Below are positions 1 through 34,218 of a stretch of DNA of 64,000 nucleotides, piece after piece. The notes below the pieces were generated by a model. That model saw only the letters and a program-made list of their open reading frames with translations. It was not told the DNA's origin and did not search any database. The position numbers and the translations under genes are program-made. The stretch's first letter is position 1; every line of letters starts with the position of its first letter. The DNA is from Candidatus Brocadiia bacterium (GTDB taxonomy: Bacteria; Planctomycetota; Brocadiia; SM23-32), in contig JBKHIT010000022.1 of NCBI GenBank assembly GCA_046538485.1, forward strand, positions 1-64,000. Direction: 5' to 3'.

Positions 1-51
1 TACGATTGGGACTTACACCCAACAAGTTTACCCAGCCTTAACTGGGCACAC
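1..51 (-). mobile_element. Probable group II intron 5' end (continues beyond window edge)
   Basis: Minus strand reads GTGTGCCCAGTTAAGGCTGGGTAAACTTGTTGGGTGTAAGTCCCAATCGTA. It has the GUGYG 5' consensus, a CCCAG/CTGGG hairpin, and a GGGTG-nAAGT-CCC domain I motif. It begins where the prepilin reading frame breaks. Only 51 nt are visible. Confidence 0.7.
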
Positions 52-85
52 GCTCAATCAACGTGAACGCCTGTGACTTCTTCAT
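52..85 (-). CDS. 5' exon of a prepilin-type N-terminal cleavage/methylation (DUF1559-like) gene, interrupted
   Basis: GGGGG RBS-like run, then ATG AAG AAG TCA CAG GCG TTC ACG TTG ATT GAG C = MKKSQAFTLIE(L). The expected LLVVIAII is replaced by intron-like sequence with an in-frame TAA. Confidence 0.75.
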
Positions 86-349
86 GAGAACCCCCAACAG
101 CAAAAACACACTGTCTGAATTCACCTTATACAAGAATACCTCCGTTTTTGCCAAATCGCAACATAATCAGTGGGAGATGAAGGGACATAAGGGACGAAAG
201 AGACTACTGGTTCATGACTTTTGATTTCCAGCTTACAGCTGGCTATGACGTCGCGAAACAGCGAGATTGCGCGGGGCTTACGGGCCCCTTGCAATGACCT
301 GGGTCCCCGGAACTTCTGACAAAATTGACACCGGCCCACGATTGCTTGT

Positions 350-379
350 ACAGGCTGGAGAGCCTTGTGCTACATGCGT
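350..379. repeat. REP-like palindromic repeat
   Basis: ACAGGCTGGAGAGCCTTGTGCTACATGCGT; near-identical copy at 32641-32669. Confidence 0.7.
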
Positions 380-507
380 GCTTTGGCCACCCCCCGCATT
401 CTGAACTTCAGCCCCGCCAGAGCGGTGCTGAAGTCCAGTCTGCTCAATGGAAGCGGTAGTTGAGGCGGACAAAACCAGTCGCAACTGAAGCCGTTTTCAA
501 ATAGCAA

Positions 508-1947
508 TTAAACCGAGCGCGGCTGTTCTCTGTAATTATCCAGCAATTCCCGCAGCTCATCCACTTTCTGAGGGAGGGCTTTTGCGAGATTTGTGGTTTC
601 GCCGGGGTCGCGTTCCAGATCGTAGAGTTGCACGGGCGGCAGACCCATTTCTTCGGCTTCATCTTCCTTCGGAAAACTCCAGCCTCCCGAGCCGCGGGCT
701 TCCAGAAGTTTCCATTTGCCCTTCCGGATTGCGAATTCCCCGCTCACCGAGTGATGCACTGTTGCCTCCCGGAAATTGCCCTCGATATTCTCGCCGCGCA
801 GAAGCGGCATGAGATCGTAGCTGTCCCCCGCCGCATTCTCCGGGATCGAATCATCGACGATGGATCCGACCGTCGCAAAAAGATCGGGCGTGCAGATCGT
901 CCGGTCGCAGACCGACCCCGGTTCCACAACACCGGGCCATCGCGCGAGGAAAGGCGTCCGGTGACCGCCTTCATAGATGTCCGCTTTCGTCCCCCGCCAC
1001 GGGTAATTCGGGTCATGGCCCATTTCCTTCAGTTCGCCGATTTTTGCCGCCGGGGAGGCCCCATTGTCGCTGGTGAAAATCACCAGCGTATCATCGGCCA
1101 GCCCGTTTTGATCAAGACACGCAAGGACTTCACCGACGACGGCATCGATCTGGGTCACGAAATCGCCATAGAGTCCGATATCGGTTCGTCCCCGGTATTC
1201 TGAAGTTGGGACGATGGGGGTATGCGGAGCTGACAACGGGAAGTAGATGAAGAACGGCTGGTCGGCCCCGTCACTGGACCGTTCTTCGATCTTTGTCAGG
1301 ACTTTCTCTGTGAATGTCGGCAGTACGTCAACGGCTTTCATTCCCGGCACGGCCATTCCGCGTCGCATGAGATACGGCGTATCGACACCGATCTTGCTTT
1401 CTTCGCTCGGGATTCCGGTGCACTGGCCGTTCTCGATGTAGACATACGGTGGGATATCGAGCGAACTCGGGATCACAAAGGAGTAATTGAATCCCCGGTC
1501 GTTCGGGCCTTCGGTGACCGATTTCGTGTAATCGATTCTCTTGAGCGCTTCCCCTTCCCAATCGTTGCTGTTTTCGGCGAACGGCTCTCCATCCTCTGTT
1601 TGCCATCCCAAACCCAGATGCCATTTCCCGACGCATGCGGTCCAGTAACCGTGCTCCTGCAGGTAAGACGCAACCGTGGGCCGGTCCTCTTCCAGCAGCA
1701 TCGGGCTTTCTCCGGTGAGAACGCCGGCTTTCAGGCGGCTCCGCCAGTTGTACCGACCGGTCATAATGCTGTAGCGGGTTGGAGTGCAGACGGCCGAACT
1801 GGTGTGGGAATCGGTAAAACGCATTCCATCGTCGGCCAGCTGATCCAGCACGGGAGTGGGGGCTTTGCAGTTGGGGTTGAAGCACCCCACGTCGCCATAG
1901 CCCTGGTCGTCAGCAAGAATGTAGACAATGTTGGGAAATTGGGGCAT
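508..1947 (-). CDS. Arylsulfatase (S1, Cys-type)
   Basis: PNIVYILADDQGYGD, CTPTR (CxPxR), GKWHLG and FTSDNG motifs. Start moved to MPQFPN, which has a GGAG RBS. Confidence 0.95.
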   Translation of the reverse strand: MPQFPNIVYILADDQGYGDVGCFNPNCKAPTPVLDQLADDGMRFTDSHTSSAVCTPTRYSIMTGRYNWRSRLKAGVLTGESPMLLEEDRPTVASYLQEHGYWTACVGKWHLGLGWQTEDGEPFAENSNDWEGEALKRIDYTKSVTEGPNDRGFNYSFVIPSSLDIPPYVYIENGQCTGIPSEESKIGVDTPYLMRRGMAVPGMKAVDVLPTFTEKVLTKIEERSSDGADQPFFIYFPLSAPHTPIVPTSEYRGRTDIGLYGDFVTQIDAVVGEVLACLDQNGLADDTLVIFTSDNGASPAAKIGELKEMGHDPNYPWRGTKADIYEGGHRTPFLARWPGVVEPGSVCDRTICTPDLFATVGSIVDDSIPENAAGDSYDLMPLLRGENIEGNFREATVHHSVSGEFAIRKGKWKLLEARGSGGWSFPKEDEAEEMGLPPVQLYDLERDPGETTNLAKALPQKVDELRELLDNYREQPRSV

Positions 1948-2073
1948 TTTCAGACTCCGATTGGAACAGAAGGCGATACAAACCAACAAAATGCTTTATT
2001 TGACGGACGCTCCGTCTCCCTGACACTCCGATCCCACAAATGACGGAGGACGCATAAGTCGTGCAGAAGTTTG

Positions 2074-2463
2074 TCAGGCTTTCTGGCTTTTCAAAAAATC
2101 TTCCACTTCTCTGGTGAGTTCTTCAATATCCTTGATTCCCTGAAGCAACTGATCGACGGGCAGCCAGCGAGGCAATTCGCCACTGATGTTGGTCGGGATA
2201 TTATGACCCTCCCAGGTGAATGCCAGTTTAGGTGTTTTTTCCAGCTCAGCCCACCTGTCCACCCATCGGCAGAATTCAGCCCCGTCCATACCCGGCAGAT
2301 ACAAATCGAGCACCAGCGCATCGTATTCTTCATGGTCATTAATCCGCAACATAGCGCGTTCTGCGCAATGCGCAACTTCGACACAGTGTCCCCTTTGCGC
2401 CAGTTTTTCCTGGACGCAGCTCGTACAGTAGCTTTTTCCTTCAACGTATAAGATTCTGGCCAT
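2074..2463 (-). CDS. Stand-alone atypical response-regulator receiver protein
   Basis: ILYVE...ALVLDLYLPGMDGAEFC receiver motif; conserved Lys-Pro not evident; N-terminal CTSC. Confidence 0.8.
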   Translation of the reverse strand: MARILYVEGKSYCTSCVQEKLAQRGHCVEVAHCAERAMLRINDHEEYDALVLDLYLPGMDGAEFCRWVDRWAELEKTPKLAFTWEGHNIPTNISGELPRWLPVDQLLQGIKDIEELTREVEDFLKSQKA

Positions 2464-2501
2464 GTTCTACATCCTCCGCTTCGGAGGGCAAGAGCCGCGA
2501 T

Positions 2502-3602
2502 TTAACTGGTCCCGTCACTACCTATGATTTTATCCAGTGCTACATGTTCTTGAATCAGATTTTGGGCAAGTTCCAGTTTGCTACGATCACGCGGAGTAAT
2601 CTTCGCCACCAATCGGCGGGCCCGATATGCAGCGGTAGCGGTATCCTCCTCGGAGAGCAAAACCGGCACATCCACCTGGCACATTAGATTCACTATGCTC
2701 AAATGCGGGATTAACCCACCGGTCAGCAAAAGTCCTGACACCTGAGACGTCGGTGCTTTATCTTGCATCAAATGGGCGTTAATACAGGTCACAATATTAT
2801 CGACGCGGTCGCCTGGTACCACGACCAGGCATCCTGTTTCCAGGTAACCCACCATATTCTGCGGTTCCATTGCGCCCACAATAATATCGCGCACTTTATT
2901 ATCCAGGTGCTCCGTTCCAGTCAGCACTTCCAGATCGAGTTCGTCCCGCAGTTGAACCATTGTGGGATAAGTCAGCTCGGTTTTATACGGGATCACGCCG
3001 AGGCAATCGATTCCTATATTCTGGAGGCCCTGTCTTACGGCTCGGCTGACTTTCTCATATTTGCTTTCGTAAACTTTGTTTATGACCGCCCCGAGGACAT
3101 TCACACCCCGTCTCTCGAAGAGCGCCCGGTTCAGCGCAATCTCATCGATGCAACTTCCTATACCCCCGCCGCTAACAATGATGCATTCCGCGCCCAGGAG
3201 CCTGGCCACCTCAGCATTCGACGCATCGATCACCGAACCTACGCCTGCGTGACCGGTGCCTTCAATAATGGCAACATCTTTCCCGGTGGCTACTTCCTCG
3301 AAAGCCTCCAATATTTGCCCCCGAATGTGCTCCGGGCGACGGTCAAAGATATAGTCCCGGGTGAAACCTCTGGGGATCAGAACGGGACTGATTTCCTGCA
3401 GGTCGCCGTCAGCGGCCAGAGCCTTTTTGAACAGGACCGCATCTTCGTCGGCCGCCACCCCATCGGTCTCGATGTATCTCTGGCCGACCGGCTTTATGAA
3501 ACAGGCCGAAAGGCCCCGTTCCAGCGCTGCCTGGTACAATCCGACCGAAATGGTTGTCTTACCGTCATGCTGCTCAGTGGCAGCGACGTAGATCTTTTTC
3601 AT
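2502..3602 (-). CDS. BioD-like AAA_26 + DRTGG protein (phosphotransacetylase N-terminal-like, no catalytic Pta domain)
   Basis: GKTT P-loop, FIKPVG, IIEGTGH and VVPGDR...LLLTGG (DRTGG) motifs. Confidence 0.88.
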   Translation of the reverse strand: MKKIYVAATEQHDGKTTISVGLYQAALERGLSACFIKPVGQRYIETDGVAADEDAVLFKKALAADGDLQEISPVLIPRGFTRDYIFDRRPEHIRGQILEAFEEVATGKDVAIIEGTGHAGVGSVIDASNAEVARLLGAECIIVSGGGIGSCIDEIALNRALFERRGVNVLGAVINKVYESKYEKVSRAVRQGLQNIGIDCLGVIPYKTELTYPTMVQLRDELDLEVLTGTEHLDNKVRDIIVGAMEPQNMVGYLETGCLVVVPGDRVDNIVTCINAHLMQDKAPTSQVSGLLLTGGLIPHLSIVNLMCQVDVPVLLSEEDTATAAYRARRLVAKITPRDRSKLELAQNLIQEHVALDKIIGSDGTS

Positions 3603-24493: not shown

Positions 24494-25402
24494 TTAGAAT
24501 CCGAACCACAATCTCTGGTACTCTTCCGAACTGGTATTTGCCTGCCACCTGATCGGTGCCGTTCCAGGATTGTCAACGACCTGGTGACTGTCCAAACGCC
24601 AGTTTTCCGCATGCCCATCGAAAAACAGAATATTGATAGACTCTCGCCCGCCGTGCCGCGCATGGGGATAAGGGGGTAATTTGCCTCCCGCCGGATCCCC
24701 GCACCAGCTGAGAGTTGACTCGTCCCATCCGGAAGCCCAATTGTATTCAGCGACATAGTTGGCCGTCCACTCCGGTGCGTTGCTATCTGCCACAAAAAGT
24801 GCATCAGCGGGGTGTTTAATCAAAGCTGGATTGACCGGATTTGCGTAACACTCCGGCCAGGGGTGTGATGGCTCAGGATCTGTCCCGTCAGGCAAAGTAT
24901 CCCACTGGCCCATATTCAGCCCGCCCGAACCTCTACCATGCAGGTACAGGTTGATCCCATATTCCATCGCGTTGTGCGAATACTGTCCGCAATACTTATT
25001 GGCCGGTGTTGAAACAAAACCTGTGGCGTCGTGGGAAATACAATCGAAAATTCCCGGGGTCACATACCCGGGATCAACCATAAAATCCGCCCAGCACTTG
25101 GGAAAATCGCTCGCCGATGTGCCGACCGTTCGCATATCATAAGCATATTCCAGGAAACTACTTCCAGCGCCCATGTCGTAGTGGCGGGCCGGCATAATCA
25201 GCCCCATGTTGTCATTCTTATACATCTCATTCGCCAGCCCCATCTGTTTCTCATTTGAGAGACAAGCAGCCATTCTGGCGGCTTCGCGTGCTGATTCCAA
25301 AGCCGGCATCAGCATCGCCGCCAGAACGGCAATGATCGCGATGACAACCAAAAGCTCGATCAGAGTGAACCCAGGCCCTGTATGCCTTTTTCCTTCTTCC
25401 AT
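24494..25402 (-). CDS. Prepilin-type N-terminal methylation / DUF1559-like protein with H-X9-DG motif
   Basis: [31 protein letters not shown]...C.SN.KQ and C-terminal [18 protein letters not shown]. Confidence 0.92.
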
Positions 25403-33423: not shown

Positions 33424-34218
33424 ATGCTATGGACCACCTCAAAAGCGGGCACTATGGCGAGGGGAAAGGGCTCGGGCGATTTCGCCTGTGTAAGAAAACC
33501 GATGCGGCACAGCGGAAGGGCTTTCACTTTGATAGAACTGCTGGTTGTGGTCGCCATCATCGCGATCCTTGCAGCCATGCTCATGCCGGCACTTGAATCA
33601 GCTCGAGAAGCCGCGCGGGTTACGACCTGCGTGGGCCAACAGCGACAGGTTCTTCTTTCCGCCCACATATATATGGACGATTATGATGGCAACGTGCCCA
33701 CACCCACTCCCGACAGGCATGATCCCAGTAGCCATGTGCTGAACAATAACAACTGGGTGTATGCCGGGTTGCTCTGGCAAGGGGGGTATTTGGGAACGAC
33801 GGCTGTTCTCTGGTGCCCGTCAATGAAAATGAAGTTGCGGAAAGAAAAATTTTGGACCCGAAACCGGGATTTTTGTCTGACGGGAGAAGTGGCTAACGAC
33901 ACGCACTGGGGAAGTTACGCCTGGGCATATCAAACAAAAAGCGACGGTGAGCCCTATTATTACTCGCCCGGGCTTCACCGTCTTGATTGGGCGAAAAACA
34001 GTAAGACAGGTTTTTTCCTGGGAGAATATCATTACACGCGTTTGAAGTATGATTATCATACTTACCTGCACGGAGGGTGGATGGGATATGGAGAAGATTT
34101 CAAGGCGAATATGGGCTATATGGACGGCAGCGTCTCCACAACGAGTAATGACCCGCATGTCATGAACTGGCGGCTCCATAATGATTTTTGGAGATACTGG
34201 CGCAATAATCGACCGTAG
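33424..34218 (+). CDS. Prepilin-type N-terminal methylation / DUF1559-like protein
   Basis: [35 protein letters not shown]-terminal H...[19 protein letters not shown] before ATG 33424; upstream TTGCCG-17-TAACAT promoter (33334-62). Confidence 0.9.

Follow-up and report, generated by a model that had tools for sequence, protein, structure and literature searches.

What interrupts a prepilin-type gene in the middle of its own signal-coding sequence, at the very end of a planctomycete contig? The stretch of DNA analyzed here (the window, 64,000 nucleotides of contig C54) comes from G000, a metagenome-assembled genome (MAG) of a Candidatus Brocadiia bacterium that is 88.3% complete, with 4.02% contamination, in 143 contigs; all of the sources used in this work are MAGs or metagenome contigs. 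On the minus strand of the first 85 bases, the initial annotation had described a start reading MKKSQAFTLIE plus a C, followed at once by an intron-like 5' end, and the sequence reads exactly so (Table 1). Base 52, this C, is the first base of the Leu codon after the Glu, and the last seven bases of the exon (58-52, ATTGAGC) form its IBS1; direct reading gives the motif A-F-T-L-I-E, the exon alone being too short for Pfam or TIGR scoring. The stub that follows, bases 51 to 1 of the minus strand, begins GTGTGCCC, and its GTGTG at 51-47 agrees with the GUGYG that marks the 5' end of group II introns, a type of start common to all eight copies in this genome and to the copies designated G016, SL, and L042.

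Very probably, positions 1-51 (minus strand) are the 5' terminus of a mobile group II intron that encodes an RT and homes specifically to prepilin-motif codons in pilin-like and pseudopilin genes, a judgment that covers intron identity and site specificity jointly. The copy in the window is a stub, the intron body and the 3' exon not being joined to it in the assembly. Base 1 of the window is the end of the contig, with no sequence further left in the assembly, and the length of the stub matches an assembly-graph break at k=55 (51 nt plus four shared exon bases): the contig stops inside a multicopy repeat. Comparison of window positions 1-3000, stub included, with Rfam gave four matches, all at E 0.67 or worse and none of them related, the stub drawing a blank because 51 nt are too short. 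A promoter-like site was looked for upstream of the window exon, and none was found.

Table 1. Position of the interrupted gene, the intron stub, and the empty target sites in the window
Feature	Position	Strand	Description
5' exon of prepilin-type gene	52..85	minus	direct reading: ATG 85-83, M-K-K-S-Q-A-F-T-L-I-E + base 52 (C)
probable group II intron, first 51 nt (5' GUGUG...)	1..51	minus	contig end cuts off remainder of copy
empty target site	33523..33538	+	F-T-L-I-E codons + C, then TGCTGG; 264-aa prepilin-type gene 33424-34218
empty target site	25354..25369	minus	F-T-L-I-E codons + C; 318-aa prepilin-type gene 25450-24494

A Complete Copy Reveals the Anatomy of the Intron

The initial annotation had expected the intron to contain domains V and VI and an RT/maturase ORF, and the exon to resume after it with LLVVIAII. 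The window begins where its contig begins, so these parts were found on other contigs of the same genome. Contig C44 holds one complete copy, in which the RT/maturase ORF is accompanied by domains V and VI (DV and DVI), and splicing it in silico restores an uninterrupted prepilin reading frame. The 424-aa RT ORF matches RVT_1 (142.7 bits), GIIM (43.3 bits), and TIGR04416 group_II_RT_mat (415.1 bits, cut-off 300); an endonuclease domain is absent, RVT_1 and GIIM being the only domains present and the ORF ending 24 residues past the GIIM match. Longer copies of the family score 34.6-44 bits (including 39.2) against the Rfam model group-II-D1D4-4, below its gathering score of 49, and the DV model Intron_gpII, with a gathering score of 40, gives 33.6 bits (E 0.0012) for C44 and 36.6 bits (E 0.00029) for L030. 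The DV/DVI folds have z values of -5.7 and -5.9 with the DV helix visible, and DV, which itself lies outside the window, is conserved across lineages. DVI forms a 16-bp stem in the same register in all four compact lineages (64/64 cells paired), with 9 of the 16 pairs changed on both sides, an unpaired branch-point A at -8, and a 2-nt tail (the last two features again in 4/4).

The RT frames are intact in the C44, G016, SL, and L042 copies. Other copies are degenerate: in C20a the RT is largely missing and DV is disrupted, C20b/C120 is truncated at its 3' side, and L035 is a remnant of 118 nt. The C20a and SL copies have a 3' architecture outside the compact DVI model, their minimum free energy folds pairing the part that follows DV with an FTLIE-coding segment that lies 130-190 nt downstream. 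The intervening sequence differs strongly among these copies, so this downstream segment may be the start of the next pilin gene instead, and we left it out of the evidence on the exon mimic described below. Contigs made by an independent assembler (run X1) bridge both C44 junctions with no differences, and among the joints listed from four DNA runs there was no intron-less joint at the C44 site, in contigs, which drop rare variants.

All Copies Follow the Same Prepilin Codons

Five further places in the genome match the stub over 42-51 nt with 100% identity, two more copies having diverged, and all eight 5' ends directly follow the FTLIE-coding motif TTY-ACN-YTN-ATY-GAR+Y in the same phase. 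Given this recurrence and the agreement of 8/8 copies, the association with the motif is far beyond chance. In a second Planctomycetota MAG, the eight copies with at least 25 nt upstream all follow the motif in the same phase and a ninth, with 6 nt upstream only, is consistent with it; the intron 5' ends on metagenome contigs L039, L041, and L042/L043 do so as well. All 19 junctions with at least 16 nt upstream lie in prepilin signal-coding sequence, the insertion point splits the codon next to the Glu of the cleavage/methylation motif (G/A)FTLIE, on its downstream side, between first and second bases, and the first base of the 3' exon is always U. Related introns with an RT identity of 58% or more (in the second MAG and on metagenome contigs) are inserted at this same position, and those at 49% identity or less are not. 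The proposal that the element targets the multicopy FTLIE-coding motif, and the expectation of further copies at such sites, are thus borne out by the 8/8 copies in this genome and by the position of the relatives.

Five contig ends in the genome (of C143, C140, C99, C138, and C118) carry the 3' end of the family (47-53 nt, making 55 with the shared exon bases) and then continue into a pilin body beginning LLVVIAII, a number equal to that of the 5' stubs; the matching of the five stubs to the five 3' ends is based on these equal numbers, on k-mer logic, and on homology to the C44 copy. Pieces resembling family A, the family of the window, have a depth of 167-182, against 24-35 in single-copy flanks, a ratio that hints at about six family-A copies, depth being no copy number. 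The presence of several near-identical copies at cognate sites is an indirect sign of mobility.

The homing motif is common to ~130 paralogues in the genome. Both of the unoccupied sites that had been pointed out in the window are present, with FTLIE+C ending at 33538 on the plus strand and at 25354 on the minus strand (the latter first given as 25355). The IBS1 of the plus-strand site, ATAGAAC, pairs with EBS1 at six of seven positions, with a mismatch at -5, and that of the minus-strand site, ATCGAGC, at all seven. The corresponding genes score 31.3 and 28.3 bits, respectively, with Pfam N_methyl, and 21.2 and 22.3 bits with DUF1559 (PF07596, Pfam SBP_bac_10), both below the cut-off of 23.3; in all, three of six Planctomycetota pilin-like ORFs have such subthreshold DUF1559 scores (20.7-22.3 bits) and three have none.

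EBS1 Reads the Motif but Does Not Explain Specificity

EBS1 is a 7-nt hairpin loop in domain I, GUUCGAU, facing the exon sequence AUYGARY, and its G and U tolerate synonymous variants of the Ile-Glu-Leu codons; with the window exon it pairs at 7/7 positions, two of them G-U. It lies in a hairpin loop in all seven variants. Across four covarying variants of EBS1/IBS1, with covariation at positions -1, -5, and -7, each of the 19 junctions with 7 nt of exon pairs 7/7, which supplies the EBS1 complementarity that the initial annotation had suggested looking for. EBS1 plus IBS3 fit 1,637 sites in the genome, however, only 92 of which are in pilin context, and therefore cannot account for the specificity: there is an additional determinant. 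The exon bases from -8 to -13 differ from one occupied site to another, and no EBS2 has so far come to light.

The Element Is Related to Group IIC but Does Not Share Its Targeting

The element had been called IIC-type, a label that may suit its RT and fails for its target. The RT is nearest to solved IIC RTs (7uim, 210.5 bits; GsI-IIC, 199.6 bits), ahead of a IIB RT (169.9) and LtrA (148.9). In the RT tree, the seven pilin-site RTs fall on one branch (SH-aLRT 100, in a quick tree only), and the IIC-like RTs proper of this sample form a separate clade of 46 rows (L090 scores 387 bits against GsI-IIC). Three features define IIC targets in the available parts of two published accounts, namely an IBS1-EBS1 pairing of 3-4 bp, a terminator or attC stem-loop upstream, and a location outside ORFs (PMC1702495, PMC4424553), and all three differ here. 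The pairing is 7 bp; none of 17 pilin-site 5' flanks has a significant hairpin (z -1.9 to +1.6 in 40-nt folds), whereas 4/8 outgroup flanks have strong ones (z -1.9 to -4.5); and, as described above, 19/19 junctions are in coding sequence. We therefore regard as very improbable the reading in which this is an ordinary group IIC intron, following the usual rule of a stem-loop and a short IBS1, with a pilin motif that adjoins such stem-loops by coincidence: the nearest solved RTs, the missing endonuclease domain, and the insertion of neighboring clades after hairpins speak for it, but it is contradicted by the hairpin counts and by the length of the pairing. Judged by its sequences, the element is a distinct IIC-related lineage that homes to a coding motif of pilin-like and pseudopilin genes.

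Domain VI Encodes a Second Prepilin Signal

The 3' strand of DVI spells out F-(T/S)-L-(I/V)-E and then the same first codon base, in a reading frame that continues into the 3' exon. A transcript that stays unspliced could therefore still code for a prepilin. In the initial annotation, restoration of the pilin signal depended on splicing; with this second in-frame FTLIE signal, splicing may not be required. In family A, the exon mimic is preceded by an ATG and a basic leader (M-RLWRRG-FTLIE), and ORFs starting from the ATG in the DVI loop score 34.3-34.5 bits with Pfam N_methyl (cut-off 21.2; three of three tested) and 35.3 bits with TIGR02532 (cut-off 16.3). In L042, an ATG preceded by AGGAGG overlaps the RT stop and opens a frame that crosses DV/DVI and continues as a GspG equivalog (123.9 bits, cut-off 88.85), the signal having Cys or Met, not Gly, at -1 and scoring only 16.6 bits with N_methyl; G016 has an in-frame ATG just 5' of DV. 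The C44 mimic is degenerate (G-F-L-L-I-V, with Ile replacing the Met of family A) and its unspliced ORF fails N_methyl, so the coding function of the mimic is not universal. Among three long post-DV regions, one has a forward sigma-70-like promoter site. The idea of an intron promoter was dropped, because the TTGACT/TATAAT pairs picked by eye have spacers outside 16-18 nt.

Whether the spare signal allows translation of the interrupted gene from RNA that has not been spliced is, in our estimation, evenly balanced. The gene would be translated as a cistron after the RT ORF, and the leader of the spare signal would then be cleaved off, so that splicing would make no difference to the mature protein. 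Insertion would thus come at almost no cost, and the intron could have spread among the more than 100 members of a gene family. A broader proposal, to which we give slightly less than an even chance, is that DVI has a dual use, as a catalytic RNA helix and as a portable start codon, leader, and FTLIE motif, its complementary strand perhaps being an antisense guide; insertion would be phenotypically silent whether spliced or not, and this would be the first "self-complementing" intron.

Alternative Explanations of the Mimic and the Stub

The mimic could instead be a by-product of target recognition, with the G/U-rich 5' strand of DVI serving as an antisense guide of degenerate specificity that pairs with exon positions -9 to -19. 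This EBS2-like strand would replace the stem-loop contact of IIC introns, and the 3' strand would resemble the exon since both pair with the guide. Such a guide is compatible with our main explanation, and the two do not exclude each other. It would address the specificity problem, as EBS1 and IBS3 leave 1,545 non-pilin candidate sites in the genome and yet 8/8 insertions are at pilin motifs: the family-A strand pairs at 8-11 of 11 positions with 92/92 pilin-context sites and reaches at least eight positions at only 66 of the 1,545 others. The strand also places G opposite the third base of the Phe codon and opposite the first base of the Leu codon, and the IIC ribozyme is described, in the part of the source available, as recognizing a stem-loop at the IBS2 position (PMC1702495). 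Occupied sites, however, are no better paired than empty pilin sites (mean 9.43 versus 9.57 of 11; permutation p = 0.73), and the G016 exons mismatch the DVI 5' strand of their own intron at about 5 of 16 positions by hand count. Since DVI must stay folded for branching, a strand swap would be required, for which we found no precedent, and a guide leaves unexplained why the family-A loop contains an in-frame ATG with a basic leader and why L042 has its AGGAGG-ATG. On this evidence, we think guidance by DVI unlikely, with a real though minor share of the probability.

A role for the mimic in regenerating the target site (giving tandem arrays), or in providing direct repeats for precise loss of the intron at the DNA level, appears improbable. 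It would fit the second copy in L041, which starts right after an FTLIE+C segment downstream of the DV of the first, the IIC-like relative L059 directly after the DVI of another copy, and the mimic of the G016 type-2 intron, which pairs 7/7 with its own EBS1; imperfect direct repeats of 16-19 nt also flank the intron, by construction. Selection for self-targeting is nevertheless disfavored, because the mimic mismatches its own EBS1 at -5 in three of the four compact lineages (family A 6/7, L042 6/7, C44 5/7). Loss through the repeats likewise finds no counterpart in the joints listed for C44, and the one deletion derivative seen, L035, does not stem from recombination between them; tandem copies, moreover, bring the intron no clear benefit. 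It is extremely improbable that the stub is an assembly artifact (a chimeric contig end) or a dead relic abutting a pilin start by chance, readings to which the status of the genome as a MAG and the clear degeneration of C20a, C20b/C120, and L035 lend something. Against them, the same junction is seen eight times in this genome, nine times in the second MAG, and also in metagenomes assembled independently; the stub lengths match exact k=55 repeat boundaries; contigs of another assembler bridge both C44 junctions; RT frames are intact in four copies; and the covariation in EBS1-IBS1 and DVI shows selection on function.

Comparison with Known Systems and Distribution

Some integrative elements carry a copy of the 3' end of a tRNA gene, and their integration regenerates an intact gene. 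The intron resembles these tRNA-targeting elements in carrying a duplicate of the displaced part of its target gene; they use an integrase, whereas a ribozyme and RT operate here, and the duplicate here is the 5' coding part and doubles as a catalytic RNA helix. With group IIC introns (B.h.I1, GsI-IIC, and the E. rectale intron) it shares an RT without an endonuclease domain and recognition of the 3' exon via its first base, and it departs from their short pairing and stem-loop targets outside ORFs, as described in the available parts of PMC1702495 and PMC4424553, in its 7-bp covarying pairing, its flanks without hairpins, and its coding motif. The IIC-attC intron S.ma.I2 has signals (Pout) that keep the downstream gene expressed despite insertion, according to the part of the report available (PMC3001079), much as we infer here; Pout, however, promotes a separate intact cassette, whereas the present intron would contribute a start codon, leader, and first five mature residues built by DVI and fused in frame.

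The IIA and IIB introns Ll.LtrB and RmInt1 also retrohome to a defined sequence by EBS-IBS pairing, which for the present intron is deduced from sequence, and the length of its EBS1 is like theirs, given as about 6 bp in the accessible part of PMC1702495. They have one cognate site, usually in one gene, in contrast to a motif found in ~130 paralogues and to a lineage that spans gene families, from Planctomycetota pilin-like genes to the GspG pseudopilin. C.te.I1 of Clostridium tetani, like the present intron, lies within protein-coding sequence, and the frames across its junction matter; alternative splice sites there yield several mRNAs, and the part of that account available describes neither an exon-mimic DVI nor multigene homing (PMC4024640).

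A DNA search of 400 other genomes sampled across the phylum found one with the intron, and an RT search of 131 other genomes of the class found none at E 1e-100 or better. Two pattern scans of viral contigs gave one match each, neither at a pilin motif. The pattern scan of the genome collection also matched a Thermoanaerobaculia intron, away from pilin sites. In the literature, subscription-only papers apart, we found no paper that describes group II introns in pilin signals, those that mention both being about knockout tools or unrelated.

Implications

The target types of bacterial group II introns, in the available part of a review, comprise unique homing sites, terminator stem-loops, and attC sites, with coding genes mostly avoided (PMC4424553). 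The lineage described here adds a fourth type, a short protein-coding motif of a whole superfamily, read by a 7-nt wobble-tolerant EBS1, and one intron therefore has ~130 cognate sites per genome. For the engineering of group II introns ("targetrons"), it offers an example from nature of targeting by a degenerate rule that covers a whole gene family. The intron also explains many of the contig breaks at pilin genes in Planctomycetota MAGs, and annotators should be warned that N-termini reading "MRLWRRGFTLIE..." at contig ends are intron-derived.

If it is translated, the exon-mimic DVI shows how a retroelement removes the cost of gene interruption, which bears on the spread of introns through coding sequence before efficient splicing existed. 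If the dual use of DVI is true, the intron could colonize the 5' ends of a family of over 100 pilin-like genes and reshuffle them through recombination, its colonization reaching even a single-copy pseudopilin gene of the type II secretion system (T2SS).

An Intron End Recurs within Prepilin Motifs

Read on the minus strand from base 85, the gene at the edge of the window encodes M-K-K-S-Q-A-F-T-L-I-E, with base 52 (C) opening the next codon, and then passes directly into the 5′ end of an intron, confirming the initial annotation's placement of this end in a prepilin motif. Window positions 1–3000 gave no relevant match in Rfam. Contig C54 begins at window base 1, and we therefore sought the adjoining sequence elsewhere in the source MAG (143 contigs, 88.3% complete, 4.02% contamination). 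Searching its contigs with the 51-nt stub identified eight places, including the window: six copies identical over 42–51 nt (C54, C56, C20:82316, C38, C49, and C42) and two diverged ones (C20:86865 and C44:128384). Directly 5′ of all eight lies TTY-ACN-YTN-ATY-GAR plus one pyrimidine, which encodes F-T-L-I-E and opens a Leu codon, so that the further copies at such sites anticipated from the window are present here, as they are in a second MAG and in metagenome contigs. A sequence of ~29 nt 5′ of the window's pilin gene recurs at ~30 other places on many contigs with 93–97% identity; it is likely to be a short repeat dispersed among intergenic regions.

Five copies are contig-end stubs of 51, 51, 48, 42, and 42 nt, each of which, added to the exon bases common with another copy, gives 55, and exact 55-nt overlaps occur at many other contig ends of this genome. 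The breaks are therefore repeat-induced products of a k=55 assembly rather than chimeric joins, which argues against the assembly join raised initially as an alternative origin. Exactly five contig ends (C143, C140, C99, C138, and C118) open with the same 47–53 nt, which again sum to 55 with shared exon bases before the pilin body continues; this segment is homologous to domain VI (DVI) of the complete copy on contig C44, with which it shares its length, 19-nt loop, and fold. We take these ends to mark where the five stub copies, the window's included, meet their 3′ exons, and the expected resuming pilin exon is thus found at these ends and at the C44 3′ junction; any of the five may carry the 3′ exon of the window's gene. 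The MAG lacks the intron body of the stub copies; a plausible reason is that the repeat collapsed into one contig of ~2 kb, too short for an assembly whose smallest retained contig is 3,454 nt.

The C20:82316 copy lacks intron positions 324–1630 and has a disrupted domain V (DV) and a non-pilin 3′ flank, and the C20:86865/C120 copy is truncated 3′ of the reverse transcriptase (RT). These two degenerate copies are co-oriented and separated by 4.5 kb; the ORFs between them presumably encode, judging by their translations, relatives of Gfo/Idh/MocA-type oxidoreductases and a sugar-phosphate isomerase-like protein.

Locations of features in the window and in related loci
Feature	Location	Strand	Reading
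5′ exon start ATG	window 85–83	minus	direct reading
Intron 5′ stub	window 51–1	minus	GTGTGCCC..., right after base 52
Repeat 5′ of pilin gene	window 350–379		
Two degenerate intron copies	C20:82316–87082 (L009)		
High-depth segments downstream of C44 pilin gene	L010 138–274, 412–548, 686–822		
Acido-Lenti-1-like match	L010 415–479		
Head-to-tail intron copies	L041 1420–1660 onward		
Intron-bearing GspG gene directly 3′ of T2SS protein F gene	L042 23–865		
IIC-like relative beside its second copy	L059 ~495–535		
Mini-derivative	L035, start at locus base 2601		

A Complete Copy

The RT/maturase and the DV/DVI domains predicted for the window's intron are found in the C44 copy, which spans 2,067 nt and carries a 424-aa ORF matching RVT_1 (142.7 bits), GIIM (43.3 bits), and the group II RT/maturase model TIGR04416 (415 bits; cut-off 300); no endonuclease domain was found in this ORF. 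Its DV/DVI match to Rfam Intron_gpII (33.6 bits, E 0.0012) lies below the gathering score of 40, and the DV–DVI fold has z = −5.7. In-silico removal of the intron joins ...R-T-G-F-T-L-I-E in frame with the pilin 3′ exon, and both junctions are bridged, with 0 differences, by another assembler's contigs from a public run. Of the group II introns represented by the genome's seven DV/DVI matches (C44 among them) and seven RT matches, only C44 has a pilin exon 3′ of it.

Another group II intron family, also multicopy, on contigs C65 (two), C79, and C113, has none of its copies at a pilin site; its four DV matches share ~60 nt of near-identical sequence 3′ of the predicted DVI. Downstream of the C44 pilin gene, three segments reach a summed depth, in public-run contigs, of up to ~4,470 vs ~30 in the flanks; this depth, the many joints and loose ends there, and an Acido-Lenti-1-like Rfam match (30.2 bits, below 37) suggest high-copy short repeats.

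Target Recognition

Alignment of the 5′ ribozyme parts reveals, around intron positions 280–330, a hairpin loop in which seven bases (EBS1) complement exon positions −7 to −1 (IBS1), covarying in four variants. Each of the 19 junctions that retain seven exon bases pairs 7/7 (Watson-Crick or G-U), including the window's ATTGAGC with two G-U pairs, which bears out the complementarity initially proposed for checking. Loop G and U tolerate synonymous Ile, Glu, and Leu codon choices, and the first 3′ exon base is T in all cases. There are 1,637 ATYGARY+T sites in the genome, 92 of them with pilin context, and 8/8 insertions are at pilin motifs; EBS1 plus T is therefore insufficient, and a further determinant must exist. 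We counted 129 empty prepilin-type sites, 88 of which pair 7/7 with EBS1, and the two unoccupied window sites already noted belong to the 129.

Target recognition and domain VI mimic by lineage
Lineage	EBS1	5′ exon	DVI mimic
Window's intron family (A)	GUUCGAU	AUYGARY	G-F-T-L-I-E
C44	GUUCGAU	AUYGARY	G-F-L-L-I-V, degenerate
SL (three metagenome contigs)	GUUCGAU	AUYGARY	
Second MAG			G-F-S-L-I-E
Second MAG, subfamily 1	GUUCGAC	GUCGARC (6/6 sites)	
Second MAG, subfamily 2	GUUCUAU	RUAGAGC (3/3 sites)	
L042 (metagenome locus)	UUUCAAU	AUUGAAA	M-F-T-L-V-E

The Lineage in Other Genomes

We scanned 185,579 species, one genome each, with an exon-blind pattern of intron 5′ bases only. Nine of the 10 matches fall in one other Planctomycetota MAG, where all eight with at least 25 nt upstream follow G/A-F-(T/S)-L-(V/I)-E + C and the ninth, with just 6 nt, is consistent with the motif; the tenth, in a Thermoanaerobaculia MAG, has no pilin motif at its site. 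This second MAG also contains a 118-nt mini-derivative (~83 nt of 5′ end and ~35 nt of 3′ end, without DV) between M-R-R-N-G-F-S-L-V-E+C and a pilin body, an internal-deletion relic for which self-splicing is impossible. Among 80 loci kept from an RT-based scan of metagenome contigs, the five with RT identity of at least 58% are all pilin-type, and no pilin motif was found in the other 75. L039 and L041 are preceded by F-T-L-I-E+C, L040 has 4 nt of exon only, and the 5′ exon of L042/L043, two nearly identical contigs of separate assemblies, reads M-N-S-K-C-F-T-M-I-E+A. The gene interrupted in L042 encodes the GspG pseudopilin (TIGR01710, 123.9 bits vs 88.85), directly 3′ of a T2SS protein F gene (PF00482, 120.1 bits), so that the generic prepilin signal is targeted, not one gene family. 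This secretion-system operon is apparently single-copy, and one of the two assemblies is titled human-gut metagenome.

In a quick, midpoint-rooted maximum-likelihood tree of 81 RT rows, the seven pilin-site RTs form one branch (SH-aLRT 100). Neighboring clades include introns a few bases 3′ of strong hairpins or T-runs, and bona fide IIC introns form a separate 46-row clade (L090 vs GsI-IIC RT, 387 bits). The lineage is patchy, occurring in 1/400 other sampled genomes of the phylum and 0/131 other genomes of the class. One IIC-like relative (L059; 43% RT identity) sits 3 nt 3′ of the DVI of its own second copy; that DVI serves there as target hairpin, a possible bridge in evolution to an exon-mimicking DVI.

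Domain VI Mimics the 5′ Exon

A compact DVI in four lineages (family A, C44, the second MAG, and L042) consists of a 16-bp stem whose register is identical throughout, leaves one A, at intron position −8, unpaired, and ends in a 2-nt tail. Every one of the 64 stem cells holds a standard pair, and 9/16 pairs are changed on both sides between lineages. Read in the frame of the 3′ exon, the 3′ strand of DVI encodes the target motif, in degenerate form in C44. The other three mimics differ from one another by synonymous or motif-allowed (T/S, I/V) changes, and Ile/Val codon changes are compensated on the opposite strand. The family A loop further supplies an ATG and basic leader (M-R-L-W-R-R-G|F-T-L-I-E-L-L-V-V...), and the resulting ORFs pass Pfam N_methyl in 3/3 tested (34.3–34.5 bits; cut-off 21.2) and TIGR02532 in the one tested (35.3; cut-off 16.3). 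An ATG preceded by AGGAGG overlaps the RT stop in L042, its frame running through DV and DVI into GspG, and the second MAG has an ATG in frame immediately 5′ of DV. In C44, Ile replaces Met and Val replaces Glu, and the unspliced ORF does not pass N_methyl. The initial view that splicing is needed for the pilin signal may not apply to family A, whose DVI encodes a signal of its own.

The two C20 copies and the three SL contigs have a common, different post-DV stretch, followed 130–190 nt further on by a ribosome-binding site, ATG, basic leader, and F-T-L-I-E+C. Folding pairs the post-DV segment with this downstream motif, and the intervening sequence varies between copies. The region may be an expanded DVI loop or the next pilin gene's start, and we left its motif out of the mimic evidence. 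L041, an SL contig, holds two head-to-tail intron copies, the second directly after F-T-L-I-E+C, ~190 nt past the first DV.

Alternative Explanations and Known Introns

The DVI 5′ strand may act as a degenerate antisense guide to the target, as at least 8 of 11 positions pair in 92/92 pilin-context sites vs 66/1,545 others; however, pairing is no stronger at occupied than at empty sites (p = 0.73), and a guide has no need of an ATG and leader. That the mimic re-creates the target site is weakened by its mismatch to its own EBS1 at −5 in 3/4 lineages. Copy-number logic, independent assemblies, and the EBS1-IBS1 and DVI covariation contradict the stub being an assembly artefact or relic.

An ordinary IIC intron is likewise contradicted. 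By RT similarity the lineage is IIC-related, but the initial assignment to IIC fails on three published traits: in the available text of PMC1702495 and PMC4424553, IIC introns have 3–4 bp of IBS1-EBS1 pairing, target stem-loops, and lie outside ORFs, whereas these introns pair 7 bp, have hairpins at 0/17 pilin sites, and lie inside prepilin coding sequence. The nearest functional precedent, as far as the available text of PMC3001079 describes it, is the outward promoter by which IIC-attC introns restore downstream cassette expression; it supplies transcription, whereas the pilin-site intron supplies coding sequence. In the open full-text literature we found neither group II introns described in pilin or pseudopilin signals nor a DVI that mimics an exon.

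Sequence comparison thus establishes a lineage of group II introns whose site-specific target, within the prepilin signal, is defined by EBS1. Whether the DVI mimic would also serve as a spare N-terminus for the interrupted gene we consider about evenly balanced. The leader of type IV pilins is cut off by prepilin peptidase. Spliced mRNA would carry the chromosomal leader and unspliced mRNA, in a cistron after the RT, the intron's leader; since the peptidase removes either, the mature protein would start with the same F-T-L-I-E, with or without splicing, so that insertion would be nearly neutral. As judged from sequence, these introns represent a new target class with an unusual dual-use domain VI, for which splicing, mobility, and internal translation are predicted.
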